A stretch of 64,000 nt of DNA, taken from contig CM059432.1 of NCBI GenBank assembly GCA_030390025.1, positions 67,396,001 to 67,460,000 of the forward strand, read 5' to 3'. Below the pieces are notes generated by a model. That model saw nothing but the letters and a program-made list of their open reading frames with translations. It was not told the DNA's origin and ran no database searches. The DNA is from Squalus acanthias (taxonomy: Eukaryota). Shown here in pieces: positions 1-60,600 of the stretch. The translations under genes and the position numbers were made by a program. Every line of letters begins with the position of its first letter. The first letter of the stretch is position 1.

Positions 1-2714
1 CCTCTAAACCTCCGACCAATTACTTTAAATCTATGCCCCCTGGTTATTGACCCCTCTGCTAAGGGAAACAGGTTCTTCCTATCCACTCTATCTAGGCCCC
101 TCATAATTTTATACACCTCAATTAGGTCTCCCCTCAACCTCCTCTGTTCCAAAGAAAACAACCCCAGCCTATCCAATCTTTCCTCATAGCTAAAATTCCC
201 CAGCCCAGGCAACATCCTCATAAATCTCCTCTGCACCCCCTCTAGTGCAATCACATCCTTCCTGTAATGTGGTGACCAGAACTGCATGCAGTATTCTAGT
301 TGTGGCCTAATTAGTGTTTTATACTGTTCAAGCATAACCTCCCTGCTCTTATATTCTATGCCTCGGCTAATAAAGGCAAGTATCCCGTATGCCTTCTTAA
401 CCACCTTATCTACCTGTCCTGCTACCTTCAGGGATCTATGGACATGCACTCCAAGGTCCCTCTGATCTTCTGCACTTCTCAGTGTCTTACCATTTAATGT
501 GTATTCCCTTGCCTTGTTAGTCCTCCCCAAATGCATTACCTCACACTTCTCCAGATTGAATTCCATTTGCCACTGTTCTGCCCACCTGACCAGTACATTG
601 ATATCTTCCCGCAGTCTGCAGCTTTCTTCTTCATTATCAACCGCACGGCCAATTTTTGTATCATCTGGAAACTTCTTAATCATACTTCCTACATTCAAGT
701 CCAAATCATTGATATATACCACAAAAAGCAAAAGACCCAGTACTGAGCCCTGCGGAACCCCACTGGAAATAGCCTTCCAGTCACAAAAACACCCTTCGAC
801 CATTACCCTTTGCTTCCTGCCTCTGAGCCAATTTTAGATCCAACTTGCCACTTTGCCTTGGATCCCATGGGCTTTTACTTTTGTGACCAGTCTGCGGGAC
901 CTTATCAAAAGCCTTGCTAAAATCCATATAGACTACATCAAATGCACTATCCTCATCGACCCTCCTTGTTACCTCCTCAAAAAATTCAATCAAGTTAGTC
1001 AGACATGACCTTCTCTTAACAAATCCATGCTGACTGTCCCTGATTAATCCGTGTCTTTCTAAATGAAAATTTATCCTGTCCCTCAGAATTTTTTCCAATA
1101 ATTTTCCCACCACTGAGGTTAGGCTGACTGGCCTGTAATTACTTGGTCTATCCCTTTCTCCCTTTTTAAACAACGGTACCATGTTAGCAGTCCTCCAGTC
1201 CTTTGGCACCACACCTGTAGCCAGAGAGGATTGGAAAATGATGGTCAGAGCCTCTGCTATTTTCTCTCTTACTTCTCTTAACAGTCTGGGATACATTTCA
1301 TCCGGACCTGGGGATTTATCCACTTTCAAAGATGCTAAATCCCTTAATACTTCCTCTTTCACTATGTTTATTTCATCTAATATTTCACACTCCTCCTGCC
1401 TGATTGCAATGTCTGCATCGTCCCTCTCTTTTGTGAAAACAGACGCAAAGTATTCATTAAGAACCATACCCATGTCTTCCGCTTCCACACACAGGTTACC
1501 TTTATGGTCCCTAATAGGCCTTACTCTTACTTTAGTTATCCTTTTTCTCTTAATGTATTTATAAAACATCTTTGTGTTTTCCTTGATTTTCCTTGCCAAT
1601 ATTTTTACATGCCCTCTCTTTGCTTTCCTAATTTCCTTTTTAATTTCCCCATCACTTTCTATACTCCTCTCGGCTTTCTGCAGTATTGAGTCCTCGGTAT
1701 CTGTCATAAGCTTCCCTTTTTTTCTTTATCCTACCCTGTATGCCCCTTGACATCCAGGGAGCTCTAGATTTGTTAATCCACCCTTTTTCTTTAAGGGAAC
1801 ATACTTGCTCTGAACCCTCACTATCCCCTCCTTGAATGCCTCCCACTGCTCTGACATTGATTTACCTTCAAGTTTCTGTCTCCAGTCCACTTTGGCTAAA
1901 TCACCTCTCCGCTTAGTAAAATTAGATTTCCCCCAATTGAGAACTTTAATTCCTGGTCTATCCTTGTCCTTTTCCATAACTACCCTACATCTAACTGAAT
2001 TAAGATCACTACCACCAATATGCTCCCCCACTGATACCCTTTCCACCTGCCCAGCTTCATTCCCTAAAACTAGGTCCAGCACCGCCCCCTCTCTTGTTGA
2101 GCTTGCTACGTACTGGCTAAAAAGTTTCTCCTGAATGCATTTTAAGAATTCTGCTCCCTCTATGGATTTCACACTAATTTTATCCCAGTTAATATTAGGG
2201 GTGTTGAAATCCCCTACTATTACTGCCCTATTTTTTCACGTCTCAGGAATTTGCCTACATATTTGCTCTTCTATCTCCCTCTGACTGTAATTGCCCCTTT
2301 TTTGTTTTTCAGTTCAACCCATATGGCCTCATTTGATGATCCTTCTAAGATATCCTCCCTCCTCACAGCTGTAATTGATTCTTTAATCAATATTGCGACC
2401 CCCCCTCCTTTTTTACCCCCCTCTCTAGCTCATCTGAAAACCCTGTAACCAGGAATGTTGAGCTGCCATTCCTGCCCTTTTTTTAGCCATGTCTCAGTCA
2501 TAGCTATAATATCATACTCCAACGTGTCAATCTGTGCCCTCAGCTCATCTGCTTTATTCCCTGGACTCCTTGCGTTGAAGTATATACTGTTTAGCACTGA
2601 CAAACTCCCTTGTTGTCTATTTTCTTGATGTGGAGATGCCGACGTTGGACTGGGGTGGACAAAAATGAGAAGTCGCACAACACCAGGTTATAGTCCAACA
2701 GATTTATTTAAAAT

Positions 2715-2750
2715 TACAAGCTTTCGGAGCTGTCGCCCCTTCCTCAGGTA
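2715..2750 (-). ncRNA. Minimal hammerhead ribozyme motif, mirror copy in the left arm
   Basis: Exact reverse complement of 3676-3711. Confidence 0.85.
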
Positions 2751-3186
2751 GAGTAGCTGTGAGAGAATCTCCCAGAATTCACAATATAAACACAGAAAAA
2801 ATGTATTCAAATCTTTCCCTACATCAAAGACACACTAAGAGCACAGCCAAGACAATGAGATGTGTCCCAGGGGGTCCAACGTGTCAAAACACCTGCTGGC
2901 TGCATATCCTCTGCAGTTGAGTTTGGTTCTTGTGTTAGTTTTTTTTTAAAAAAAAGCTGGAAAGACCGGCCATGATGTCAAGTCACGTTCTGTATCGTGA
3001 CATGAACCCGATATCGCGATTGAGGCCATCCTCATGAGTGCGGAACTTGGCTATCAGTTTCTGCTCTATGATTTTGCGCTGTTGTATATCCCGAAGGCCG
3101 CCTTGGAGAACGCTTACCCGCAGATCCGAGGCTGAATGCCCCTGACTGCTGAAGTGTTCCCCGACTGGGAGGCAACCCTCCTGCCT

Positions 3187-3447
3187 GGCGAGACCATGCA
3201 GACACTGAGACAACGTATGAACGGACACCGCACAACAATCGCCAGGCAGGAGGGTTGCCTCCCAGTCGGGGAACACTTCAGCAGTCAGGGGCATTCAGCC
3301 TCGGATCTGCGGGTAAGCGTTCTCCAAGGCGGCCTTCGGGATACACGACAGCGCAAAATCATAGAGCAGAAACTGATAGCCAAGTTCCGCACTCATGAGG
3401 ATGGCCTCAATCGCGATATCGGGTTCATGTCACGATACAGAACGTGA
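3187..3447 (+). pseudogene. C-terminal fragment of a Penelope-type GIY-YIG endonuclease
   Basis: GETMQTLRQRMNGHR...PVGEHF...H...RKIIEQKLIAKFRTHEDGLNRD fits the (YI)GET-R-H...E...GLN pattern of PLE GIY-YIG domains; mirrored on the minus strand at 2983-3191. Confidence 0.88.
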
Positions 3448-3675
3448 CTTGACATCATGGCCGGTCTTTCCAGCTTTTTAAAAAAAACTAACACAAGAAC
3501 CAAACTCAACTGCAGAGGATATGCAGCCAGCAGGTGTTTTGACACGTTGGACCCCCTGGGACACATCTCATTGTCTTGGCTGTGCTCTTAGTGTGTCTTT
3601 GATGTAGGAAAAGATTTGAATACATTTTTTCTGTGTTTATATTGTGAATTCTGGGAGATTCTCTCATAGCTACTC

Positions 3676-3711
3676 TACCTGAGGAAGGGGCGACAGCTCC
3701 GAAAGCTTGTA
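3676..3711 (+). ncRNA. Minimal type I hammerhead ribozyme motif (Penelope-associated)
   Basis: TAC-CTGAGGA-A-GGGGC-GACA-GCTCC-GAA-AGCT-T-GTA: CUGANGA and GAAA core, 5-bp stem II, self-complementary AGCT in place of stem III, stem I TAC/GTA. Confidence 0.85.
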
Positions 3712-4089
3712 ATTTTAAATAAATCTGTTGGACTATAACCTGGTGTTGTGCGACTTCTCATTTTTGTCTATTTTCTTGCCTTTGTTTCCTCTGCCTACCA
3801 AACTCGCTTACTAATTTTATGCCTTCTATTTCCAGCTTTGCTTCTCTCCCTTCTGAATCCACTCTCAGGTTCCCATCCCCCTGCCAAGCTAGCTTATACC
3901 CTCCCAACAGCACTAGCAAACCCCGCCGCGAGGATATTGTTTCTGGTCCTGTTGAGGGGGAGCTGTGAAAGGGATGCTTGGTTGTTTACAGGACTGCTTT
4001 TTGTTAGTGGAATTGGTTGGGGCGGGGTGGGGGGATGGTGGGGGTGGACAAAAATGGCTTTTGCATGTGTTAGTTAGATGGGTGCACTG

Positions 4090-7000
4090 GTTGAACCTAA
4101 GGGAACCTTGCAATAACTGAGACCTAGCTCAAATAAGGGCAGGATTGGATATTAAATATTCCTGATTATAAAGTGTTCAGGAAAGATAGGGAAGGAAAGA
4201 TAGGAGGTGGTGTGGCAGTATTGGTCAAGTAGAATGGAGAGAGAGGATGTCCTGGAAGGGTCAAGGACAGAATCTATATGGCTAGAGTTAAGAAATAATA
4301 GAGGTGCCATTACACTACTAGATGTATTCTATAGATCACCAAATAGTGGGAAAGATATGGAGGAGCAAATTTGCAGAGAAATTACAGAGAGGTACAAGAA
4401 CTATAGAGTAGTAATAATGGGGGACTTCAACTATCCTAATATAGACTGGGATCATAATAGTGTTAAGCTCAGAGACGGGGAAGAATTTCTGAAGTGTGTT
4501 CAGGAGAACTTTCCTGATCAGGATGTTTCCAGCCCGATGAGAGAGGAGGCATTGCTGGATCTGGTTCTGGGGAATGAGGTAGGTCAAGTGGAGCAAGTGT
4601 CAGTAGGTGAACATTTAGGGAACAGTGATCATAGTATCATAAGGTTTAGATTAGCGATGGAAAAGGACAGGGAGCAATCTATAGTAAAAATGTTTAACTG
4701 GCGGAAGGCCAATTTCAGTGGGATGAGAACGTATCTGGCCCGGGTAAATTGGAATCAAAGATTGGCAGGCAAAACTGTAATCGAACAATGATTCGAACCT
4801 TTAAAGAGGAAATAGTTCAGGTACAGTTGAGGTACATTCCCACTAGGGGGAAAAGCAGGGCAACTAAAGTCAGGGCTCCCTGGATGATGAAAGAGATAGA
4901 GAATATGATGAAGCCAAAAAAGAGCGCATATGACAGATGTCAGGTTGCAAATACATTTGAAAATCAGGCTAAATATAGAAAGGTCAGAGGAGGAGTGAAA
5001 AAGAAAATAAGAGGGGCAAAGATAGGGTATGAGAATAGAATGGCAGCCAACATAAAAGGTAATCCAAAAGTCTTCTATAGGCATATAAATAGTAAACGGG
5101 TAGTAAGCGGAGGGGTGGGGCCGATTAGGGACCAAAAAGGAGACCGATGCATGGAGGCAGAGGGTATGGCTGAGGTACTAAATGAGTACTTTGCATCTGT
5201 CTTCACCAAGGAAGAGGATGCTGCCATAGACATAGGGGGCGATTTTGCCAGCCCTGGGGAGATGTGTAAGGAGGCGGAACTGCCGGGAAAAATGGTAGAA
5301 TCTGGGGGCGGGTACTCATCCCGCCCCCAACCCGCCTCCGTGCCATCTTCCCAGGAGGCGGCTACCCCACCCGCGCTGGGAGCCGCCTCCCTGAGGCGGG
5401 AAGGGGATTAGTGCCAATTAACTGCCTGTTAACAGGTAGTTAACAGGCAGTTTTTTTGGATAATCCCTATTTTCAGCCCTGAAGTGTGGGCTTCCCGACG
5501 GCTCCGAACCACGCCAGGGTCAGCGAGGCGGGCTGTCGGTCTGCGGGGGTCGGAGGGGCCGAGATGTCCGGTGTGCAGGTGAGTGATGAGTGCAAGTGTG
5601 GAGAGGTAGGTGTGTGAGGTGAGTCTTAAGTGTTTTAATAAGTTTTACTTACCTTTACTTCTTCTTGCAGGTTTCAACCCTTCAGGTCTCGGAATCCCTC
5701 ATCTCACCGGCACAGAAAGCAGAAATGCCGCTGAATTGTCAAAAGCTGCAGCCTTCTGCTTTCTGCCCAGGAACGCTCTCTAACTGAGCCTGAGTGGAAG
5801 GGCTCAACTTAGAGGACAGATTGCCAGTGTTTGACAGCTTCACAGAGCTGTCAAACGCTGACATTTCATCTGTCAAAAGCTCTTGACAGATGAAACGTCA
5901 CTTGCTGACGTCACTTGTAACCGGCTTCCCCTTAATTGGCCTGCTAAGCCCGCTGGGCGGGTTTAACAAGGTCAATCAAGGGAAAATAGCATGGGTTGGC
6001 CACAAGTCGATGGAGGCGGGACTAAAACCCGACAAGTAGGAGTCCCGCCTCCAACACGCCCCCATTGGCAAAACCACCCCCATAGTGAAGGAGGAGGTAG
6101 TGGAGATACTTGATAGGATAAAAATTGATAAAGAGGAGGTATTCGAAAGGCTGGCTGTACTTAAAGTAGATAAATCACCAGGAGCGGATGGGATGCATCC
6201 TAGGATTCTGAGGGAATTGAGGGAGGAAATCACGGAAGTAATGGCCATAATATTCCAATCCTCCTCAGATATGAGGGTGGTGCCAGAATTGCAAATGTTA
6301 CACCATTGTTCAAAAAAGGGTGTAAAGATAAACCCAGCAATTACAGGCCAGTCAGTTTGACCTTGGTAGGGGGGAAGCTTTTAGACACAGTAATCAGGGA
6401 CAAAATTAACAGTCACTTGGATAAGTGTGGATTAATTAAGGATAGCCAACATGGATTTGTTAAAGGCAAATTGTGTTTAACTAACTTGATTGAGTTATTT
6501 GATGAGGTAGCGGAGAGGGTTGATGAGGGTAATGTAGTTGATGTGCTGTACATGGATTTCCAAAAGTCATTCGACAAAGTGCCACATAATAGGCTTGTCA
6601 GCAAAGTTGAAGCCCATGGAATAAAAGGGACAGTGACAGCATGGATACGGAATTGGCTAAGTGATAGGAAACAGAGAGTAATGGTGAACGGTTGTTTTTC
6701 GGACTGGAGGAAGGTATACAGTGGTGTTCCCCAGGGGTCGGTTCTAGGACCACTGCTTTGCTTGATATAAATTAATGACTTGGATGTGGGTGTACAGGGC
6801 ACAATTTCAAAATTCGCAGATGATACAAAACTTGGAAGTATAGTTACCAGTGATGAGGAGAGTGATAGACAGCAAGAAGACGTAGAAAAGCTGGTGAAAT
6901 GGGCGGACACGTGACAGATGAAATTTAACGCAGAAAAGTGTGAAGTGATACATTTTGGTAGAAAGAATGAGGAGAGGACATATAAACTAAATGGTACAAT

Positions 7001-7727
7001 CCTGAAGGGGGTGCACGAACAGAGAGACCTGGGGGGTATTTGTGCACAAATCATTGAAGGTGGCAGGGCAGGTTGAGAAAGCAGCTAAAAAGGCTTACGG
7101 GATCCTGGGCTTCATAAATAGATGTATAGAGTACAAAAGTGTGGAAATTATGATGAACCTGTATAAAACACTGGTTCAGTCCCAACTGGAGTACTGTGTC
7201 CAATTCTGGGCACCACACTTTAGGCCTTAGAGAGGGTGCAGAAAAGATTTACGAGAATGATTCCAGGGATGAGGGACTTCAGTTACATTGATAGACTGGA
7301 GAAGCTGGGGTTGTTCTCCTTGGAGCAGAGAAGATTGAGAGGAGATTTGATAGAGGAGTTCAAAATCATGAGAGGTCTGGACAGAGTAGATAGAGGGAAA
7401 CTGTTCCCATTGGCAGAAGGGTCAAGAACCATAGGACACAGATTTAAGGTGATTGGCAAAAGAACCAAACGCAACGTAAGAAAAAACTTTTTTACACAGC
7501 GAGTGGTTAAGATCTGGAATGCACTGCCTGAAAGGGTGGTGGAGGCAGATTCAATCATGGCTTTCAAAAGGGAGTTGGATAAGTATCTGAAGGAAATAAA
7601 TTTGCAGGGCGACAGGGAAAGGGCAGGGGAATGGGACTAGCTGAAGTGCTCTTGCAGAGAGCCGGCACGGGCTCGACAGGCCGAATGGCTTCCTTCTGTG
7701 TTGTAACCATTCTATGATTCTATGATT
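4090..7727 (+). mobile_element. CR1-clade LINE, ORF2 nearly complete but frameshifted, with 3' tail
   Basis: [34 protein letters not shown] and LEYCVQFW motifs in successive ORFs; ends in a 3' hairpin and (ATTCTATG)n repeat at ~7709-7727. Confidence 0.93.
5235..6081. mobile_element. PIF/Harbinger-type MITE nested in CR1
   Basis: TIRs GGGGGCGATTTTGCCA / TGGCAAAACCACCCCC (2 mismatches); 3-bp TSD ATA; CR1 coding sequence resumes on both sides. Confidence 0.85.
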
Positions 7728-19740: not shown

Positions 19741-22700
19741 ATCAAGTGCCCCCTTTTAAAGGGGCGCAACCAATAAACCGTAAATTAAACCAAATTTAAA
19801 TGAAACTTAACAAATCAAATCAGAATGCGGTTTCCAGGGGTGATGAAGCACTTCAGTCCCTCCGGTCCCCCCCGGTCGCGGAAGGCCTGAAGCGTACCGG
19901 TGGATACCGCATGCTCCATCTCCAGGGACACGCGATAGCGAACATTGCTGCAGAAGAGAGGCAGGCAGTTGGGCCGAATGATCCCCTCGACCTGCCCACT
20001 GCCTGGACCTGTTAACGGCCTTCTTGGCCAGGCCCAGGAGCAGTCCAACAAGGAGGTCCTCCGATCTGCCCGCTCCCTTCCACACCGGGTGCCCAAGGAT
20101 CAGGAGCGTGGCACTGAAGGCAACCAAAAATTGAGGAGCAGCCCCTTCAAAAATTGGAAGAGGGGCTGCAACCTCTCACACTCTGTGTATACATGGAACA
20201 CGGACTCCTCCAGGCCGCAGAAATTGCAGGCGGCCTGGGAGTCCGTGAACCTACTTAAAAATTTGTTGCACGGGACTGCTCCATGCAACACCCCCCACGC
20301 CAAGTCCACCATAGAAAAGGGGAGAACTCCCGCGTAGAGAGCCCTCCACTGGGAGCGCTCGCCTCCTCCGGGTGGCAAGAGGGCACATCCTGATGGCCGA
20401 CAAGGAAGCCAAAGTGGAGAGTGTGCAAGAGCAACCCCTACAAGAAAACCCTCCGTGCAGAGTGAAAAGGCATGGAAGGGATCTCCGAGAGACGGCTCAA
20501 GCTGTGAAGCTCCAACTCCTGAGGGAGGTTTTGGTGCCTGGTGCCAATGAGAAATTCGATCCGAACGGAGGTCAGTTCAGACGGGGTCACTTCACACGCT
20601 TGAGCCTTCTCAACACACCTAGTGGAGTCATGGCTGAGTGCCTCTTTTAGCGTCTCGATGGCTTTGTCCGTGAGAAAGTATGCCATGTCAAGACATGTGC
20701 TGTGCCAGCTCCTCTGGCGACATCCAACCCGCTCCTCCGCAATCCAGTACGTCCCTGACTCTGGTTACCTTGCCAGCCAGGGCCCTCCCCTCCACCAGCC
20801 ACCCGATACGCGATCGTGGAGGTGTGGATTCCTGAGCAGCAGCTCCCGGAGGATAGCCACCAGTCCTGACAGGGGAGAACACCGGCTGGAGGCGTAAATG
20901 TTCCAGATCCTGATCAGTTCCTGGTAAAAGACAGGCAGCTCCTGCAAGGTGGCATGGCTATACCCCAGTTTTCTAAACAGGAGCTGCATGCTGTAATTGA
21001 GGCCGTGCAGCTACGGAAGAAATACGTCACCAGTGCACACCATCTGGGAGGATCCTCGACGTACAGGTATCTCTGTAGGGTCCGAAGACGGAAATTCGCA
21101 GCCTGGGAACGCACGCACACCAGCCCCTGACCGCCTTCCCTAAGCGGGAGACTCAGAACCATGGCAGAGACCCAGTGCTTCCTTTGGTCCCAGAAAAAGT
21201 CAACAAGCTTCTTCTGTATCTTGGCAACAAACTCAGGGGGAGTGATCAAAGTGACCGGCCGGTACCACAGCATAGCGGCCACCAGTTGATTTATGACCAG
21301 CGCTCGATCCCTGTAGGACAGCACTCGGAGCAGCCCTGTCCAGCACCCTAGGCGAGCGGTGACTTTGGCCTCCAGCTCTTGCCAGTTCACCGGCCAGGCT
21401 TCCTCGGCAGGGATAAGGTAGTCTCCCAGGTAGAGGAGTTGAGAGGTACTCCAGGCAAAAGGCCTGATCTCCTCTGGCAGGGAGTACATCCATCACTGAC
21501 CCATCAGGAGTCCGGAATATTTCTCCTAGTTGATCCTCGCAGAGGACATGGCAGAATAGACCAGCTGGCACTCGCGCATCTTCCGCAAGTCAAAAGATTC
21601 TGTGGCATGAGGAGCACGGCATCAGCGTAAGCCAAGCGGACGACCTCCACACCCGGCCCTCTGTGGAAAAATGTCGGGGAGGGAGCGGGCCCTGGGGAAA
21701 GTGCCGGGGAGGGAGCGGGCTCTGGGGAAAGTGCTGGGGAGGAAGCGGGCTCTGGGGAAAGTGCCGGGGAGGGAGCGGGCTCTGGGGAAAGTGCCGGGGA
21801 GGGAGCGGGCTCTGGGGAAAAGTGCTGGGGAGGGAGCGGGCTCTGGGGAAAGTGCCGGGGAGGAAGCGAGCTCTGAGGAAAAGTGCCGGGGAGGGAGCGG
21901 GCTCTGTGGAAAAATGCTGGGGAGGGAGTGGGCTCTGGGGAAAGTGCTGGGGAGGGAGCGGGCTCTGTTGAAAATGCCAGAGAGGAAGCGGGCTCTGGGA
22001 AAAAACCCAGAAACATCATGCTTCCGGTTTCAAATTCATGGGCAGTATGCTTCAGCACTGCTTCCAGTCGTTGGCAGCAGTCACTCCGTAACCTTAATCA
22101 GACACTCCACAGCGGCATACAGAAGTCGGATCAGGGTGACAAAATGCATTCCGAACCCAAAAGCGCACAGAGTCACGAAGAGGTACTCGTGATCCACCCT
22201 GTTGAATGCCTTCTCTTGATCCAGGGAAAGGAAGGCGACCGACAGACCAGCTCTCTGGGAATGGTGAACCAGGTCTGGACCAGATGGATGTTGTCATGGA
22301 TGGTCCGGCCCAGGACCATGTCGGACTTGTCGGGGTGGATCATGTGGGCCAGCACGGTGCCATGGTGAGCAGACATTGTCCTGGCAAAAATCTTGTATTC
22401 TGTGCCGAGAAGGGAGACCGAGCTCCAGTTCTCTTGGTAGCAGGACGATGACTGCCCTGCGTCAAGAGAGGGGTATCTCCCCGGTCGCCAGATTTTCCCC
22501 CAGGACCCACGCATAGTCGCCCCAACCCTCAGGACATTCCAGAATGCCCTGTTGAATTCCACGGTCAGCCCGTACAGCCCCGGGGATTTGCCGCTTGAGA
22601 GCTGGCTGAGGGAATCGGTCAGCTCCGCCAAGATTAGTGGAGCATCAAGCTGTTTGGCGTCCTCCGGGCTGACCTTCGGCTGGTCCTCCTATAAAACTCT

Positions 22701-30645: not shown

Positions 30646-31833
30646 TACTGGCAATCAGTAACTAGTGGTGTTCCACAGGGGTCAGTGCTGGGTCCCCAAC
30701 TCTTCACAATCTATATTAATGATTTGGAGGAAGGGACCAAGTGTAACATATCAAAATTTGCAGATGATACAAAGATGGGAGGGAAAGTAGTGAATGAGGA
30801 GGACATAAAAAACCTGCAAGGGGACATAGACAGGCTAAGTAAGTGGGCAGAGATTTGGCAGATGGAATACAACACTGGAAAGTGTGAGGTGATGCACTTT
30901 GGCAGGAAAAATCCTAGAGCAATTTATTATCTTAATGGCAAGAAACTGGAGAGTACTGAAGTGCAAAGGGATCTGGGGGTCCTGGTGCACGAAACTCAAA
31001 AGGTTAGTATGCAGGTGCAGCAAGTGATTAAGAAGGCAAATGGAATGTTGGCTTTCATTGCTAGGGGGATAGAATATAAAAATAGGGAGGTATTGCTTCA
31101 GTTGTACAAGGTATTGGTGAGACCGCACCTGGAATACTGCATACAGTTTTGGTGTCCTTACTTAAGGAAAGACATCCTTGCTCTCGAGGCAGTGCAAAAA
31201 AGGTTCACTCGGTTAATCCCGGGGATGAGGGGGGGTGGTCATATGAGGAGAGGTTGGGTAGATTGGGACTCTACTCATTGGAGTTCAGAAGAATGAGAGG
31301 CGATCTTATTGAAACATATAAGATTGTGAAGGGGTTGGATCGGGTGGATGCGGGGAGGATGTTCCCGATGACGGGTGAGACGAGAACTAGGGGACATAGT
31401 CTTAGAATAAGGGGCTGCTCTTTCAAAACTGAGATGAGGAGGAACTACTTCACTCAGAGGGTGGTAGGTCCATGGAATATGCTGCCACAAAAAGCTGTAG
31501 AAGCTACAACATTAATTAAATTTAAAACAGAAATAGACAGTTTCCTAGAAGTAAAGGGCATTAAGGGTTACGGGGAGCGGGCAGGAATTTGGACATGAGT
31601 CTAGGTTCGGATCGGTCATGGCCCTGTGGGTAGTGGAGCGGGCCCAGGGACTGTGTAGCCTGATTCTGCTCCTATTTCGTGTGTGCAATTCTGTTAGATG
31701 CAGGAGATGGTTCTGTGATAGATAGTAGATTGGCGGTTAGGATCAGATCAGCCATGATCTTATTGAATGGCGGAGCAGGCTCGAGGGGCCGATTGGCCTA
31801 CTCCTGCTCCTATTTCTTATGTTCTTATGTTCT
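30646..31833 (+). mobile_element. Young 5'-truncated CR1
   Basis: [14 protein letters not shown]; nearly identical to ~56436-57619; (TTCTTATG)n tail. Confidence 0.94.
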
Positions 31834-31997
31834 TATTTTGGCTGGCCTCCCCAAGGTCCCCAAACCCTGCTCATATCCTCCAATTCGAGCTGGATTGGGT
31901 GCAAAGCCTTAACACTTGCTTCTTCTGGGTGCTCATGAAATAGTCGCATGCCCATTGTTCTAGTAGGAATATGAGGTGGAAGGGCCCTTTAGGATCA

Positions 31998-44460: not shown

Positions 44461-47400
44461 TACATAGGATTACATAGGATATACGGCACAGAAACAGGCC
44501 ATTCAGCCCAACCAGTCCATGCCAGCATTTATGCTCCACCGAGCCTCCTCCCGTCTTTCCTCATCTAAATCCATCAGCATAACCCTCTATTCCCTTTTCG
44601 CTCATATGTTTGTCTAGCCTCCCCTTAAATGCATCTATACTATTCGCTTCAACCACTCCCTGTGGTAGTGAGTTCCACATTCTCACCACTCTTTGGGTAA
44701 AGAAGTTTCTTCTGAATTCTCTATTGGATTTCTTGGTGACTATCTTATATTGATGGCCTCTAGTTATGCTCTTCCCCACAAGTGGAAACATTCTCTCTGT
44801 ATCCACTCTATCAAAATTTTTCATAATTTTAAAGACCTCTATTAGGTCACCCCTCAGGCTTCTTTTTCCAAGAGAAAAGAGAACCAGCCTGTTCATCCTT
44901 TCCTGATATGTATACCCTCGCATTTCTGGTATCATCCTTGTTAACCTTCTCTGCCCCCTCTCCAGTGCCTCTATATCCTTTTTATAATATGGCGACCAGA
45001 ACTGTACGCAGTACTCTAAGTATGGTCTAAACAAGGTTCGATACAAGTTTAGCATAACTTCCCTGCTTTTCAAGTCTATGGGGAAAAAATGGGTTGCTTT
45101 GTGCAAAGCCCGTAGCGCCCGGGCGCGGTATCGCTAACGCCTGCCGCGAAATTCAGCGGGAGGTTAGCGGTGGCGGTAGCCTGTAGCGCCCCACAGTGCT
45201 GCGCCTCCAGCGCTGACATCATCACCATGCACAGCGCCCCGGCCGCAAACTTCAGCTGTGCCCTTGACCTATTGCCGGACGATATGTCCGACAGGGTCAG
45301 GGTGATGTTTTTGCATCCGCAGTGACGGTATTTAAAGGGGCAGCTGTTGGGCGTTCTTTTTTTTTGTGGCCGCCTGCCAGCACCTGCCCCCTTCCCCTCT
45401 TTTATTCCGGGTGCCGGCCGCGATCACTCAGCACGGCACTCCTCTTGAGTGCTGGGCTGCTTTCCCGGCATCCCGCTCCCCGGCGATCCAGCAGGGCCCC
45501 GGTGCGCGCAGCACTAGGCCCCTCCCCTTTAATCAGGGAAGGGAGGCCTGCAATACCACGGCGCTATGTGCTGACGTGCATGGCGCTGTTGCACATAGCA
45601 CCGCGATATTCACTGGTAGCGCCCCAGGAAGGAGGGGGAGCGCTTCCAGTAGCACCCCGCCTCCTCCCTGGGGCGCTACCACTGAAATTACGGCGCAGGG
45701 GTGCTAACTTTTTCGGGACGCTAAAAGTAGCGCCCCGGCAAAGTTAGCGTCCCAAAGGGGGCACCACCGAATTTTCCCCCCCATACCTCTAGAAATAAAC
45801 CCTAATGCTTAGTTTTTTTTTATGGCCTGGCTAAACTGTGTCGCAACTTTCAGTGATTTGTGTATTTGTACTCCTAGGTCCCTTTGTTCCTCTACCCCAC
45901 CTAGACTCGCGCCCTCCAAGTGATAAGTGACCTCCCTATTCTTCCCACCAAAATGTAATACCTCACATTTATCTGTGTTGAACTTCATTTGCCAATTATA
46001 TGCCTATTCTGCAAGTTTATTAATATCCTCCTGTAACGTGTTGCAGTCCTCCTCAGTATTGACTATCCCCCCCAATTTGGTGTCATCCGCAAATTTAGAA
46101 ATTGTGTTTTTGAGTCCTAAGTCTAAATCGTTAATGTAAATTGTGAACAGCAGTGGTCCCAGCGCTGATCCTTGTGGAACACCACTACCCACCTTCTGCC
46201 ACTATGAATAGCTACCCTTTACTCCTACTGTCTGCTTTCTGTCCTGAAGCCAGCCAACAATCCATTCTGCTACCTGTCCTCTGACTCCACATTCTCTGAC
46301 CTTGCTCATCAGTCTATTATGGGGTACCTTATCGAAGGCCTTTTAAAAATCCAGATAAATTACATCTAAAGCATTACCATTGTCTACTCTGTTACCTCTT
46401 CAAAAAATTCAATAAGGTTGGTCAAGCAAGACTTTTCCTTTTGAAATTCATGCTGACTATTCATTATTATATTTTTGGTTTCTAGATGTTCTTCTATTTT
46501 CTCCTTTAGTAGGGATTCCATTATTTTTCCTATCACCGATGTTAAGCTGACTGGTCTATAATTCCCTGGACATGTTCTAACCCCCTACTTAAATATCGCT
46601 ATTACGTTAGGAATCCACCAGTTCTCTGGCACTATACCTTTTTCTAATGAATTATTAAATATGCGCAGTAATGCCTCTGCTATCTCTTCCCTAGATTATT
46701 TTGAAATGCGTGGATGCAATCCATCCGGACCAGAGGTTTTATCCTCTTTGAGTTTGATTTGTTTATTTAATATTTCCCCTTTTTTATTTTAAATGCACTT
46801 ATCTCATTACTAATCTCATCATCCAATGTCATGTCCACCTGTTATATCTCCCTGGTAAATACTGAAGCAAAATAATTATTTACTATTTCTGCCATCTCTC
46901 TATCGTTACCTGTGGTATTATCCTCACTATCCCTTAATGGCCCTATTCCCATCCCAACCTTTCTTTTTTTATTGATGTGCCTATAAAATATTTTACTATT
47001 TTGTTTTATATTCTTTGATAATTTAATTTCATAGTTCCTCTTTGCCTCCCAAATTGTTTTTTTGACTTCTTTCCTAATCTTTTCGTATTCTCTCTTATCA
47101 TGCACTACCCTGCTGTCTATGTATTCCATGCATGCCACTTTCCCTACCCTTAATTGTTCCCTTATGGCTTTATTCATCCATGGAGTCTCATTAGTGTTTA
47201 GTTTGTTCTTTCCTTTTAGCGGAATATATTGTTCCTGCACTCTGTTGAACACCATTTTAAATGTTTCCCATTGCTGTTCTACATCATTGCTTGCCAATAT
47301 TGTTGCCCCTTTTTCCCCCAAGTTTTATTCTCAGCTCCTCAAAATCAGATTTTCTACAAACTATTAACCTGGTTTTTGTCATACTCATGTCCTTCTCAAT

Positions 47401-48325: not shown

Positions 48326-48842
48326 TGCACATATTAAACTATATGGTCCTTTGTTAATTTAAATCATTTTTTCACAAAAGGAAGGTTCACTATGGAAAGT
48401 TTTGTGCTAGTGCCATCATAAATATAGCAGAAATATTTCCTTAGATTGCTATTTCGACTGAAATCATAAATGTGTTCTTTTAGAACGCTTTTACAATTTT
48501 GCTATAAATAGCCAACAAGCTAACATATTGCCACCAGCAGAAATCCTCCTGGTATATTACATGTATTGACTGGTAACCCTTTCACATTCCAGTTTAATCT
48601 TCCTGGTATATTACTTGTATTGATTGAAACCCTCTCACATTCTAGTTTAATCTTCCCAATAAAAAATGTTCACAGCAAACCAGCGCATTCAAGGATAGCT
48701 GGCGGGTGATATTTGGAAAGGTCGGAAATGTTATCCTGTTATTCCATTCTTGAATATAGCAACAGCTGCTAAAAGCAGGTCATTGGTCTTACATTGCAGT
48801 CAGTAGCAGTAAAATCTTCTTGGTGCTGTTATAATATATTTA

Positions 48843-49065
48843 ATTGAGAGGTCGCACAACACCAGGTTATAGTCCAACAGTTTTATTTGAAATCACAAGC
48901 TTTCGGAGCTATCGCTCCTTCCTCAGGTGAAGTTTTTACTTCACCTGAGGAAGGAGCGATAGCTCCGAAAGCTTGTGATTTCAAATAAAACTGTTGGACT
49001 ATAACCTGGTGTTGTGCGACCTCTCAATTTTGTCCACCCCAGTCCAACACCGGCATCTCCGCATC
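48843..49065. mobile_element. Miniature palindromic Penelope-like insertion related to 2628-3763
   Basis: Perfect 92-bp inverted arms 48842-48933 / 48938-49029 with TTTT loop, unpaired 3' tail to 49065, TSD ATAATATATTTA at 48831-48842 and 49066-49077. Confidence 0.92.
48941..48978 (+). ncRNA. Minimal hammerhead ribozyme motif (mirror copy at 48893-48930, minus strand)
   Basis: TCAC-CTGAGGA-A-GGAGC-GATA-GCTCC-GAA-AGCT-T-GTGA. Confidence 0.87.
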
Positions 49066-50998
49066 ATAATATATTTACCCATAGTCTTGTCTTTTTGTTC
49101 TTACTTATCTCTTCAAATTTTATTTTTTGCCTGAGCTTTTATGCTCATTGTGACAAAGAATGTCGGTGTTCAGCATTGAAAATATTTTCTACTTTTAGCA
49201 ATCGAGAGCTGATTTTACAAGTTTCTGTTGGCGGTGCGGAGCCTCACTGGCTTGGAGTGCATGTCACTGAATCAGGCTCACAGCCCAGTGTGTCTGAGTC
49301 GCTGTGCACAAAGAATAATTCTAGTGTTTTTAAGGTTTGGCTGGTGTCCATTGCTAGCCTCATTATTGATACAAAAATACGTAAGTTTGTCCCGTGCTGC
49401 ATCTTGCAGCTTTCCAACAACTTTGCCCCTGGAAGTGCTGCTCGCCCATTTGAAACAGGCCCGGCAGTATGTGGATAGCCTGGCCTGAAGAAATCGGCTT
49501 CTTAAAGGAAAGTACTTTTCTGGTTTGAAAGTGACATTTTTTTTGCTTTCCATAAGGGGGATATTTAACTGGTAGTGGGATTCAGGGGTGGCGGGGGGGG
49601 GATGGGGAGAGCGGCAAATGCGTCTGATTCGGCAGCATGAATCGCGTGTGGTTTTTAACATCCAGACCTCACCTGCATGTCGCCGGTCAACTGCATGCCC
49701 GAAGTGGGTGGGAAGCTGGCTGTTGGGCGGAAGTGGAAGTTCAGGTGGCAGGAGTCTTACCCATAGGAAGGTAGGTCGGTGTAGGGAGGATTTTAGTGGC
49801 CGGTGGGGGGGGGCAACTTTTGGTCCCAGATTCTCTTCCCGCTGTCATCACCTACTGACAAAGCCGCAGAGGCTTTCCTGCTCGGGCCAGAGTTGAAATT
49901 ACAGTCAGGATCCGATGACATCATTGGAGTCCAATCTGCATATTTAGAGAAGGATTCCGTCAGCTTCAGGAGGGTGCCCTTGCCGCCTGCTTAGAAGCAC
50001 AGGTTAAAATTGAAGATGGCAGCATCTAGGTGGGACATCGGCGGGTAAGTTACCCAGCCAATTTTAACTGCCCACCCGCCCAGTTTCTGCCATGTGGGTA
50101 GGGTTAAAATTTGCCCGCTGTACCCGGTGGAAGGCAAAACCATATTAAGTTGTAGCAATAAAATAACTCCTGTAATTATTAACAGTGCAAACAGCTGATT
50201 AAAGATGCCTGAAGACCTGACTTTGCCTGAAATCAGGAGAGCTTTTAAATTGGTAAGTACTGAACTGTACAGAATAGTCGGGGCGCTTAATACGCTTTAA
50301 GCAATGCCTTTGTAATTGACCCCTATGGTGACGACAAATGGTTAGCGCCATTTGCCATATATAGTTGGCTGTCCATGATAAGCATGGTAGGCATTACACA
50401 TCTTTGCCCTTTCTTATCAACTAAACCCACTTTAAAAGTCAATACTCCCTGAAGTGACTGGCACTAGCAGAGTGGTCTGCACAGAGTGGTATTAAACAGA
50501 GTGCACTTAAACAGAGTGTTAAAATCGGGAATTTGGAGAGAGTGGAAGTCTCTGGTAAGTACTGGGTAAGCATTAGCTGTAAAAAGTTAAATTTAGTTTA
50601 ACATTTTGAATTTAACTTAGAACTTAAAAAATTATAGTTGACAGAAACTGCCCGTCAATGACAGTTAACTGTCAATCAGCCTTAAGTATTTGTCTTGAAT
50701 AGGTGCTTATAACTGTGAGCTGGAAGCTGAGTCAGCACTTGTAACTTGGGTGTGGCTCCAAGGTAAAAGTAAATAGTATCTGCTGATACACAGAGTGGTC
50801 TTAAATGGACTGCACTTAAACAGAGTGTTAAAGTTGGGAATTTGGAGAGTGGGTATTCGGAGCAGAGGGGGAAGGAGCTGCTGCTTTTTGCCTCCAATAC
50901 TTGTAGTGTTTTGGGTTACAGGTAATCTACCTATAACTTAAACTAGATCTAGTAATTAGTTAAAAACTAAACTATAGGCTAAGTTAATTAAATACTTA

Positions 50999-55529: not shown

Positions 55530-57619
55530 GTAAAAACTTTAAAAGGCAGCAAAAAATAACAAAAAGATTGATTAAGAAAGGGAAGATAGATTATGAAAGT
55601 AAATTAGCAAAAAATATAAAAACAGATAGTAAGAGTTTGTATCGTTATATAAAAAGAAAAAGGGTGGCTAAAGTAAATGTTGGTCCCTTAGAGGATGAGA
55701 CCGGGAAATTAATGGTGGGAAATATGGAGATGGCAAAAACACTGAATGAATATTTTGTATCAGTCTTTACAGTAGAGGACACTAAGAATATCCCAACACT
55801 GGACAAACAGGGGGCTATAGGGGGAGAGGAGCTAAACACGATCAAAATCACTAAGGAAGTGGTACTCGGTAAAATAATGGGACTCAAGGCGGATAAATCA
55901 CCTGGACCTGATGGCTTACATCCTAGAGTCTTGAAGGAAGTGGCGGTAGGGATTGTAGATGCATTGGTAATAATTTTTCAAAACTCCCTGGATTCCGCTA
56001 AGGTCCCGGCAGACTGGAAAACTGCTAATGTAACACCCTTATTTAAAAAGGGCAGTAGACAGAAGGCTGGTAACTATAGACCGGTTAGCCTAACATCTGT
56101 GGTAGGTAAAATTTTGGAGTCCATTATTAAGGAAACAGTAACAAGACATTTGGATAATCATAATTTAATAGGACAAAGTCAGCATGGTTTTACGAAGGGG
56201 AAGTCATGTTTGACAAATTTGCTGGAGTTCTTTGAGGAAGTAACATATAGAGTGGATAAAGGGGAACCAGTGGACGTAGTGTATTTAGACTTCCAAAAGG
56301 CATTTGACAAGGTGCCACACAAAAGATTATTGCTTAAGGTAAAAAATCACGGGATTGGGGGTAATATTCTGGCATGGATAGAGGATTGGCTATCTAACAG
56401 AAAGCAAAGAGTTGGGATAAATGGTTCATTCTCAGACTGGCAATCAGTAACTAGTGGTGTTCCACAGGGGTCAGTGCTGGGTCCCCAACTCTTCACAATC
56501 TATATTAACGATTTGGAGGAAGGGACCAAGTGTAACATATCAAAATTTGCAGATGATACAAAGATGGGAGGGAAAGTAGTGAGTGAGGAGGACATAAAAA
56601 ACCTGCAAGGGGACATAGACAGGCTAAGTAAGTGGGCAGAGATTTGGCAGATGGAATACAGCACTGGAAAGTGTGAGGTGATGCACTTTGGCAGGAAAAA
56701 TCCTAGAGCAATTTATTATCTTAATGGCAAGAAACTGGAGAGTACTGAAGTGCAAAGGGATCTGGGGGTCCTGGTGCACGAAACTCAAAAGGTTAGTATG
56801 CAGGTGCAGCAAGTGATTAAGAAGGCAAATGGAATGTTGGCTTTCATTGCTAGGGGGATAGAATATAAAAATAGGGAGGTATTGCTTCAGTTGTACAAGG
56901 TATTGGTGAGACCGCACCTGGAATACTGCATACAGTTTTGGTGTCCTTACTTAAGGAAAGACATCCTTGCTCTCGAGGCAGTGCAAAAAAGGTTCACTCG
57001 GTTAATCCCGGAGATGAGGGGGTGGTCATATGAGGAGAGGTTGGGTAGATTGGGACTCTACTCATTGGAGTTCAGAAGAATGAGAGGCGATCTTATTGAA
57101 ACATATAAGATTGTGAAGGGGTTGGATCGGGTGGATGCGGGGAGGATGTTCCCGATGACGGGTGAGACTAGAACTAGGGGACATAGTCTTAGAATAAGGG
57201 GCTGCTCTTTCAAAACTGAGATGAGGAGGAACTACTTCACTCAGAGGGTGGTAGGTCCATGGAATATGCTGCCACAAAAAGCTGTAGAAGCTACAACATT
57301 AATTAAATTTAAAACAGAAATAGACAGTTTCCTAGAAGTAAAGGGCATTAAGGGTTACGGGGAGCGGGCAGGAATTTGGACATGTGTCTAGGTTCGGATC
57401 GGTCATGGCCCTGTGGGTAGTGGAGCGGGCCCAGGGACTGTGTGGCCTGATTCTGCTCCTATTTCGTGTGTGCAATTCTGTTAGATGCAGGAGATGTTTC
57501 TGTGATAGATAGTAGATTGGCGGTTAGGATCAGATCAGCCATGATCTTGTTGAATGGCGGAGCAGGCTCGATGGGCCGATTGGCCTACTCCTGCTCCTAT
57601 TTCTTATGTTCTTATGTTC
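55530..57619 (+). mobile_element. Young 5'-truncated CR1 with an uninterrupted RT region, nested in the older CR1
   Basis: About 620 codons open to the stop at 57391 with all RT motifs; host CR1 frame breaks at RKANG (55530) and resumes at IARELDYKSKEVLLQ (~57626). Confidence 0.94.
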
Positions 57620-60600
57620 TTCCTAATTGCAAGGGAGTTGGATTACAAGAGTAAGGAAGTCTTGCTACAATTGTACAGGGCTTTGGTGAGACCACACCTG
57701 GAGTACTGTGCACAGTTTTGGTCTCCTTATCTAAAGAAGGATATACTTGCCTTGGAGGTGGTGCAACGAATGTTCACTAGATTAATTCCTGGGATGAGAG
57801 GGTTGTCCTATGAGGAGAGATTGAGTAGATTGAACCTATACTCTCAAGTTTAGAAGAATGAGAGGTGATCTAATTAAAAAAACGAGATTCTGAGGGGGAT
57901 TGACAGGGTAGATGTTGAGAGGCTGACTCTAATGGCTGGAGAGCCTAGAACTAGGGGGCATCATCTCAGGATAAGGGGTCAGCCATTTAAGACTGAGATG
58001 AGGAAGAATTTCTTTACTCAGAGGGTTGTAAATCTTTGGAATTCTCTACCCCAAAGGGCTGTGGATGCTGAGTCTTTGAGTATATTCAAGGCTGAGATGG
58101 ATAGATTCTTGGACTCTAGGGGAATCAAGGGATATGGAGATCGGGGGGGAAAGTGGAGTTGAGGTCGAAGATCAGCCATTATCTTATTGAATGGTGGAGC
58201 AGGCTCAAGGTACCATTTGACCTCCTCCTGCTCCTAATTCTTATGTTCTTAAACTTTAGAAAGCGAGACCTTTCTGTCTCACTATGAGAGTTCCAGGCTC
58301 AATCTGCCCATGACTGACTTTTTCCAGAGAAAAACAGAGGAACAAAGCTGATTTCTGATGCCTTCCTTAGCTTTGTGTGTGGAGGATTGCCTTCTGAGTA
58401 CCTTGAATGAGAAACCTTCCCCATTGGCGTAGGAACTACGTCAACTACATTGTTTATTCAGCTAAGCCTCCCTCACTGTATAAACAGCTCTGGACTGTGC
58501 TCAATGGTCTCGATTGTTTCAAAACTACACTGATATGTGAGAACACACACATCTGAAATGGCTGAATGTCTGTTTGTCCAACTAAATTGTCCCAAACAAC
58601 ATTCCAGATAGCTTGCGTATCTCTGGAAGTTTACCCTTTGTGAACAGAATTTAAATTCATAGCAGCATCATAATAGAAATTAAACCAAAATTCCTTCCAG
58701 TCCAAATAGGTTTAATTCTCAAAATATCATGTGCCCAAATTCTTTTGGGGATTGCAATGCCACTCCTAGATTTTGGAAGATGAAGTGCAGTTCTTGAGAG
58801 GACAGAAAAGCAGGTCCAACTGTATGTCATAGATTATATATGTACCTGTACTTACCCCAGGACCCAAATTTGCTAACGCAGAGCGCTGAATTTTCCTCTG
58901 CTGTCAGGCAGGATTGCAGTACAATAGGCAAGAGAAATGGGCCTGCCACCACATTCCCTACAGCAACCTCAATTTTCGTCCTCCCACACCTGCCAGGACA
59001 GCCATCCCTAGCCCAGCCACTGCACATAAATGCGAGTGGGAAGACAGGGCCCAGAAAGCCGCCACATTTTCCTTCCGATCTCTATTGTCATCACCAATTC
59101 CATGGGCAACCAGTAGAAAGGTGGTACTTCCTTCTCCAACAAAGAAATCATAAAGAGGGTAACCCCCATATGGAATAAGCATTTTGCAGTCTTCCACTTC
59201 CTTTTAGGGAAATTCCCCAAGGCAGAAGCAATCTTAAGGGAGACTGCTAATTGAAGCTAGGAACCTCTAAAATAAAGTGCAAAAAACATTTTGATAGAAG
59301 ACCAATCAAAACTAAACTTACGAGTCTCTATCTAACAACATAATGAAACACTTAAGGTTCCAGCATTAACCTTCCTCAGCTGCTGTTCTAAGTCACCACA
59401 TGGCTGCGTTCAGGTAAAACAGGTCTACATGTGGGATAACCAACGGTTCTTAAAGGGACCGCTGCAAGCTGCCACCAAAAAGGTAAGTTTAAAAAAAATA
59501 TTTACCTGTGTGTGGAACCGGAAGGTGCAGGACCTCTTCTCCTGGCTCCATTGCAGTGCTGCAGGCCATTGCCGCCCCCGTCGCCTTCCTGACCAATCAC
59601 CCTCCTGAGTACCTTCCTTTCCGATTGTGCTCCTTCCCGATCACCCTGCTCCCGATCGCCCATGTTCCTTGTCGCCTCCCCTCCCGCTTGCTTTCCTTTC
59701 CCCTTTAAGCACCTGCCTGAGGCTGCTGCCGGTGATGTAGCATCCCAAAATGTCAGGCCTCTTCACCAGGGAGTCACCTGGGGGCACCCAGCAGGTGTTC
59801 GCAGCTCGTCAGTCCCATTTAAATGAGGCTCAAGGCCCAATATTTGGTGCGCCTCTGTCCTGCCCGTTCAAGCGCACAGATCGTTTCCTGCACCTAATTT
59901 GTGCTGGTAGGCTGGCACAAACAAATTTCTAGGCCCTTGGCTCAAATCCCCATTGTTACAACAAGAAAATGAACAATTGCATATGCACAATGACACTGCC
60001 TGTGTGCGAAGGGATGTTTTATAGAAGGCAACTTTATTCCCTTCCAATCTTTCTTTCTAGATTTCTCTGCTTGTCACTACTTAGAACGGGGAATCATGGA
60101 ATACCGAAGCACACTGCTTACAAAATAACTAAAAGTGGGAAATATTTTGTTTTTTGGCACTTTGACCCTGTTTGGTTAACTTAAGGTACAAACTCAGTTT
60201 AGCACTTGTCCCAGTTCAGATTTTCTCAAAAGGCACTGTTATACTTGTGTGAATACAATAGCTCGCTGCATCATTTATACACTGGTCTGGTTTTCAGAAT
60301 CTGTGATGTTTTTGTTGGCATCATGAAGTCATACTGTAACCTTTCTTATTGAACTATTATGTTAATGATTTTAATACAGTGAAGAATTGTATTTTTTTTT
60401 ATTACCAGCTCTGTAAAGTTTCAGTCCAGAAGTTTCTGACATCAGTCTGGCTCAACCTGCAGTTATTAATGTAATGTTGGATTTAACACAACCTTTGACT
60501 TTATTGATAATGAAAGTCTCAGTGGAGGAAGATAAGCAATGTGAAGGTGACATTGCATTTATTTGTAATAATAAAGTCTAGGTCTGGATTTTTTGCACTG

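Follow-up and report, generated by a model that had tools for sequence, protein, structure and literature searches.

The 64,000-nt stretch of the Squalus acanthias genome analyzed here (assembly GCA_030390025.1, contig CM059432.1, positions 67,396,001 to 67,460,000 of the forward strand; hereafter the window) contains a 1.1-kb palindrome at positions 2613..3778. It is almost certainly an insertion of a Penelope-like element (PLE), and its features are best explained by a young, 5′-truncated insertion of a PLE with a C-terminal endonuclease, formed in one event inside an older long interspersed nuclear element (LINE). We consider it rather probable that both nicks in the target primed reverse transcription from start sites approximately 35 nt apart, and that the two products were joined at a 5-bp microhomology.

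Architecture of the palindrome

Global alignment of the two arms, one of them reverse-complemented, together with an inverted-repeat listing, defined a left arm at 2658..3191 (534 nt, minus strand) and a right arm at 3239..3768 (530 nt, plus strand), separated by a 47-nt spacer (3192..3238). The left arm is an inverted, 5′-truncated copy of the element 3′ end, while the right arm is a sense copy of the same end. The arms are distinguished by four substitutions, all of them transitions (left-arm positions 2759, 2817, 3083 and 3086), and by four gap columns within a single T/A homopolymer (2947-2950), which account for the difference in length.

The whole unit is framed by a perfect 15-bp target-site duplication (TSD), with copies at 2613..2627 and 3764..3778. 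The first five TSD bases double as the end of the right arm, whose terminus therefore lies at 3763, or at 3768 with the shared bases, and the last one or two bases of the left copy also fit the end of the element tail. This AC-rich tail (minus strand) occupies 30 unpaired bases, 2628..2657, between the left TSD copy and the left arm, and reaches approximately 35-37 nt once the bases shared with the TSD are counted. Folding predicts that it pairs back onto the repeat end, although this stem is not significant against shuffled sequences (z about -1). An earlier reading of the letters alone (the sequence-only reading) had described a palindrome with these arms, spacer, 30-nt tail and TSD, and the analysis confirmed that description. 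An exact 16-nt copy of the tail/arm boundary (2652-2667) is present at 4041-4056, about 260 bp beyond the right end of the insertion; it lies in a G-rich patch and may have arisen by chance, or it may be a very small remnant.

The head-to-head junction falls on the pentamer GGCGA (3187..3191), with which, as the sequence-only reading had also noticed, the left arm ends and the G-E-T codons begin. To place the junction within the element we used public sequencing contigs from four runs, the best of which contained 0.53-0.58 of the sampled words; contig depth is treated throughout as a hint and not as a copy number, and the contigs carry no strand. In the ordinary element, as loose ends of these contigs show, 3187 is preceded by TACATC (Tyr-Ile) and, on the left arm, 3191 is followed by TTGTTG (each in three of the four runs, among the best 24 of 809 rows). 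Since the letters of the ordinary element are known on either side, the microhomology is exactly 5 bp long. The spacer is ordinary element coding sequence, in frame with the endonuclease fragment described below, and the loose ends at 3191 assign it to the right, tail-less arm; the left arm carries the tail and lacks the spacer. Of 28,175 head-to-head junctions simulated from the palindrome sequence, 0.43% had a microhomology of at least 5 bp.

Identity of the inserted element

The plus strand at 3187..3447 encodes the C-terminus of a GIY-YIG endonuclease, 86 codons followed by a stop codon and cut inside the YIG motif. A shorter copy of the same coding fragment is located on the minus strand at 2983..3191, as revealed by six-frame translation and tblastn with the protein P0005, its lower end being placed by arm symmetry. 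The 86-aa (amino acid) fragment shares 73% identity with residues 797-880 of P0005, a protein of 881 aa that bears a reverse transcriptase (RT; E 4.7e-32), and a search of 1.84 billion protein representatives yielded 372 matches at E ≤0.001. Nothing matched in a Pfam scan of the fragment alone. Its identity is taken from full-length relatives, as the fragment itself is devoid of the GIY and YI residues.

P0005 carries an RVT_1 domain and the DKG motif. Among eight relatives scanned, RVT_1 was matched in six and GIY-YIG in five, although just one of these five matches exceeded the Pfam cut-off. The relatives read Y-[IV]-G-E-T where the fragment opens at the G of the YIG motif, and the Tyr-Ile codons given by the contig loose ends precede exactly this point. 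Both His residues of the CCHH zinc finger are retained in the fragment, while the two Cys residues, which precede YIG in the relatives, have been truncated away. The features of endonuclease-bearing (EN+) PLEs are found here partly in the insertion and partly in its relatives: a C-terminal GIY-YIG domain on the same open reading frame (ORF) as a PLE-type RT (in P0005 and relatives), a CCHH finger in the endonuclease (His in the fragment, Cys in the relatives), a hammerhead motif in the terminal repeat (one per arm), and, in both of the insertions identified in the window, an inverted 5′-truncated copy bearing 30-40 bp of tail on one side, together with a TSD of variable length.

A CX2-5CxxC linker between the RT and the endonuclease was found in all nine long relatives examined; the linker of the insert's own family lies outside the 64-kb window. 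According to the available text of PMC8557442, this linker is assigned to Neptune and Nematis, and not to Penelope/Poseidon. The insert is therefore probably a Neptune-type PLE, with the linker motif taken from relatives and Neptune not separated from Nematis. No RT of this family was detected within the window by tblastn. A 24-nt element-end pattern gave no matches in metagenome and viral contigs, a protein alignment against metagenome contigs produced 128 pattern matches and no confirmed loci, and literature searches on shark Penelope elements returned nothing. The proposal of the sequence-only reading that a single Penelope-like insertion with a GIY-YIG fragment gave rise to the palindrome is upheld by the similarity to P0005, the single TSD and the element-derived tail.

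A second insertion in the window

A related head-to-head insertion, approximately 91% identical and in the opposite orientation, was identified at 48831..49077. It is framed by a 12-bp TSD (48831-48842 and 49066-49077) and has fully complementary arms of 92 bp (48842-48933 and 48938-49029), a 4-nt spacer and a tail extending to about 49065. Each arm contains a hammerhead motif, and the turn-around falls a few bases upstream of it. The tail-less ends and the tail ends of the two insertions align to identical element positions, which points to a family with two fixed termini, and the match between the tails identifies 2628-2657 as element sequence. The bases common to element and target at the four ends of the two insertions number five, one to two, one and one.

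Mechanism of palindrome formation

The TSD, the two fixed termini, the microhomology and the ownership of tail and spacer by particular arms are directly visible in the DNA; from these we infer two priming events and their coupling. In the proposed mechanism, the endonuclease would cut both target strands 15 bp apart, as the TSD length implies. The bottom-strand nick would then prime reverse transcription at the tail-less start site, aided by five matching bases, giving a complementary DNA (cDNA) of approximately 577 nt (3763 to 3187). The top-strand nick would prime at a second start site about 35 nt further 3′; the tail-bearing strand made there would measure approximately 564 nt (2628 to 3191), provided that it extended as far as the junction. 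Finally, the two products would join at GGCGA/TCGCC and be filled in.

The position of the tail, which is element-derived and sits on the spacer-less arm, supports two primings. The end points shared by the two insertions, the colinear LINE flanks and, as described below, the contig-depth steps and the even split of the arm differences also speak in their favour. As reported in PMC11167929, as far as its text was available, a purified PLE protein cuts each strand of the target and extends it, and reverse transcription starts at two sites whose interval corresponds to the 30-40 bp tail. Microhomology between two cDNA ends is described as a signature of L1 twin priming in the accessible part of bioRxiv 2024.08.27.596794.

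The nearly equal cDNA lengths (564 and 577 nt) suggest that the two syntheses were coupled. PLE RTs are not known to carry an RNase H, the lack of which would permit strand displacement on one RNA; in the domain scan, none of the eight relatives gave an RNase H match. We tentatively consider that the two RTs of one dimer might share an RNA, initiating some 35 nt apart with one at each nick, and travel together, the trailing RT displacing the cDNA of the leader, until both stop together. Such an arrangement, if true, would account for the one-sided tail, the near-equal cDNAs and the short spacer on the tail-less arm. The purified Anolis PLE protein is predicted to be a dimer (PMC11167929, available text), and the paired-enzyme model was not found stated in the accessible parts of the literature searched. 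The passages available from PMC9977147 and bioRxiv 2026.07.22.740005 contributed no further information about mechanism.

One competing explanation is a snap-back, in which one cDNA folds at GGCGA/TCGCC and copies itself, so that the left arm would for the most part be copied from the right. We regard it as rather unlikely, although several observations speak in its favour. The arms are nearly identical, and each of the three junctions has a short spacer, of 47 nt in this insertion, 4 nt in the second one and about 48 nt in one low-depth contig of run X1. Moreover, the predicted minimum-energy DNA fold of the last 57 nt of the bottom cDNA closes exactly the GGCGA/TCGCC stem (-3.5 kcal/mol), although with an open loop this stem is weak (-0.8 kcal/mol). 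Against it stands the distribution of tail and spacer. As the spacer is in sense on the plus strand and belongs to the right arm, a snap-back would have to copy the right-arm cDNA, and this cDNA is tail-less; the tail lies on the would-be copy arm, so a single fold-back cannot explain the palindrome. An additional step is needed: either the other nick primed a short second cDNA that supplied the tail, or the endonuclease trimmed an intermediate that at first bore tails on both arms, and the available text of PMC8557442 attributes the tail to EN-mediated resolution of an intermediate. The sequence-only reading had proposed fold-back or template switching in one event. Its single insertion and 5-bp microhomology hold, as does template switching if understood as the annealing of two cDNA ends, but pure fold-back fails, since the right-arm cDNA cannot template the tail.

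Self-priming on an antisense transcript, building a head-to-head repeat before integration, has been proposed for palindromes at the inverted junctions of rotifer Penelope elements (PMC3846280, in the portion available) and would let the copy arm include the tail. Against it, the purified protein uses transposon RNA together with nicks on both target strands (PMC11167929, same portion as above), and we judge this route improbable. Each arm ends at a normal terminus of the family, which would be in keeping with two independent insertions into the same site, or with an inverted duplication or gene conversion at a later time. However, a single TSD encloses the complete insert, substitutions separate the arms at just four of about 530 positions, and the insertion at 48831-49077 shows this layout again, which makes such histories very improbable.

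Several points weigh against the two-priming mechanism that we prefer. Independent truncation of two cDNAs would not predict short spacers, so two primings require coupling, and the exact closure of the GGCGA/TCGCC stem in the predicted fold is what a snap-back would require. The spacer of the second insertion could not be assigned to either of its arms. The in-vitro data concern PAc, an element of the Poseidon clade whose reverse transcription starts without target homology (PMC11167929, available text), whereas here five bases match at one end. LINE paralogs did not settle how many TSD copies the empty site would have: when the site was rebuilt with no, one or two TSD copies, two paralogs ranked the versions in opposite order, and a 15-bp unit keeps the reading frame. 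Finally, no contig spanning the locus-specific junctions was present among the 32 of 31,242 pieces listed.

Authenticity and age of the insertion

The same contig result, with the limited share of sampled words found in even the best of the four runs, leaves room for the palindrome being a fold-back read or an assembly artefact. Such an artefact would mirror the flank too, but the actual flanks are different, colinear halves of a LINE. An artefact also fits poorly with the TSD, the one-sided element-derived tail and the transitions between the arms, and the insertion at 48831-49077 repeats both the layout and the two end points; we therefore consider this explanation extremely improbable.

The contigs carry further traces of the family. 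In all four runs the summed depth rises in two steps, one at the tail and one at the arm; in run X8, 16 contigs leave the element at 2626, the tail end, into unrelated flanks. An opposite-strand joint 3191/3225 in run X1 is most simply ordinary element and was not counted as support. No empty allele was seen among the contig pieces listed.

With respect to the four arm differences, the letters of the right arm make up about 99% or more of the depth of family contigs at 3083 and 3086 in all four runs, while one contig of run X16 is identical to the left arm over 2753-2833, spanning 2759 and 2817. The differences thus look split two and two between the arms. This fits arms that were identical at insertion and acquired approximately two mutations each, and hence a young age, although homogenization between the arms would give the same pattern.

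Hammerhead motifs and other RNA models

A putative minimal type I hammerhead motif was identified in each arm by a descriptor scan and a pairing table, at 3676..3711 (plus strand) in the right arm and at 2715..2750 (minus strand) in the left arm, the definition being that of PMC4209133 as given in its available text. The right-arm motif comprises a helix I of 3 bp, CUGAGGA, an unpaired A, a helix II of 5 bp, GAAA and a palindromic AGCU, with a predicted cut after 3708. The descriptor, which was composed after the motif had been seen, found four motifs on both strands of the 64 kb, every one of them in an arm of the two insertions, whereas 30 block shuffles yielded none. The candidate hammerhead thus occurs on both strands, as the sequence-only reading had stated, because the sequence is a palindrome. 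Pairs of metazoan PLE minimal hammerheads on opposite strands, 100-700 bp apart, had already been noted (PMC4209133, available text).

Between the two insertions, helix I shows a two-sided, pairing-preserving change and helix II a one-sided change; with so few sequences the covariation is not significant (85 of 500 shuffles). Folding of the hammerhead and tail regions was no better than that of shuffled sequences (z from 0.05 to -2.0 over six stretches), and no Rfam hammerhead model matched the palindrome. Other Rfam matches were rejected: mir-2545, a microRNA precursor, scored 53 bits against a cut-off of 94 and reflects pairing at the palindrome center, while SNORA74 and PhrS were below their cut-offs.

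The host LINE and the surrounding sequence

The regions on either side of the palindrome are two colinear halves of one older minus-strand LINE, at both the protein and the DNA level, as found by tblastn and by DNA alignment to LINE paralogs in the window. The downstream half (2000..2612, minus strand) corresponds to the endonuclease region of this LINE and the upstream half (3779..3957, minus strand) continues it; Exo_endo_phos_2 and RVT_1 Pfam domains were found further along. We take the family to be CR1-like. Many public contigs hold an additional 28-39 nt at 2286-2294, which indicates a small deletion in this LINE copy relative to its family. No host gene was recognized among the 24 of 38 long ORFs scanned: except for one sub-threshold match, they contained LINE domains or matched nothing. 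Short exons would escape such a scan.

Old LINE copies in opposite orientation (16-2277 and 4354-7456, 65-76% identity) form a large imperfect inverted arrangement around the palindrome. Two adjoining short hairpins are located between LINE fragments at 5822-5900 (one with 18-bp arms and a 6-nt loop, the other with 21-bp arms and no loop), and a short imperfect palindrome of repeated GTTAAC sites at 5412-5449. A GC-rich, 78-nt self-complementary stretch (82%) at 45609-45686 contains no hammerhead motif by the descriptor. Two 1.19-kb LINE 3′ pieces, 26 kb apart (30647-31834 and 56436-57621), are 99% identical; either this LINE family is very young, or the piece was duplicated locally. The high-GC region at 20-26 kb, which includes a GC-rich tandem repeat (21659-22004) and several long ORFs, one with a weak zf-RVT match, is possibly another retroelement.

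Functional considerations

The locus is most likely an inert remnant: it has no RT, its endonuclease motif is cut, and the hammerhead would be buried in a hairpin if both arms were transcribed. A read-through transcript is predicted to fold into a very long and very stable hairpin with 547 pairs. The roles suggested by the sequence-only reading, as double-stranded RNA, as a possible siRNA or ADAR substrate or as a cruciform-prone locus, would be hypothetical. No locus-specific RNA was seen among the contig pieces listed, and run X8, which is possibly RNA, is no evidence of transcription; should palindromes of this kind be abundant and transcribed, they might be a source of long double-stranded RNA. 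As a dead fragment in the standard layout of its class, the locus carries little weight on its own. Its value is that of a clean data point on how PLEs make inverted copies, a step that the literature, in the parts available, calls unresolved: the positions of tail and spacer rule out the simplest one-step fold-back.

Comparison with known systems

The closest counterparts are the Neptune/Nematis-type EN+ PLEs which, as described in the available text of PMC8557442, share with this insertion 5′ truncation, an adjacent inverted truncated copy, a 30-40 bp tail at one end, a hammerhead in the terminal repeat, as well as a GIY-YIG domain at the C-terminus. Through the closest long relatives (all nine examined), the CX2-5CxxC linker is also shared. 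Unlike those elements, the copy in the window consists of the last 86 codons alone, with RT and linker known from relatives, and its target is an old LINE rather than a microsatellite.

Pen2a_Av and Pen2_Av of Adineta vaga (PMC3846280, in the portion available) resemble it in their inverted terminal repeats, a TSD (9-10 bp in A. vaga), a tail on one repeat (31 bp) and an overlap at the inverted junction. However, Pen2a_Av keeps a whole ORF between its repeats, whereas both arms here are truncated and nearly equal, which results in an almost pure palindrome. PAc, a Poseidon element of Anolis carolinensis (PMC11167929, available text), belongs to a different clade by linker motif, but likewise has two termini a tail-length apart, within AC-rich sequence downstream of the hammerhead. 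In the shark element the tail ends about 91 nt past the predicted cut, and one start region of PAc lies 85-92 nt past its own cut, by subtraction of the numbers given in that report.

With the metazoan PLE minimal hammerheads (PMC4209133, available text), the candidate motifs have in common the core boxes, an unpaired base before helix II, the G10.1-C11.1 pair and a tiny palindromic helix III; they differ in having a helix I of 3 bp and a helix II of 5 bp. In L1 twin priming (bioRxiv 10.1101/2024.08.27.596794, accessible part), too, both nicks prime, the cDNA ends join by microcomplementarity and one TSD frames the inverted product. There, however, the second primer anneals far inside the RNA and the inverted part is mostly different sequence, whereas here about 35 nt separate the start sites, with the result that each arm repeats the other. 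The combination of an inverted truncated copy, a one-sided tail of 30-40 bp, a TSD and a hammerhead is the published norm for these elements in the sources available, and the shark palindrome follows it.

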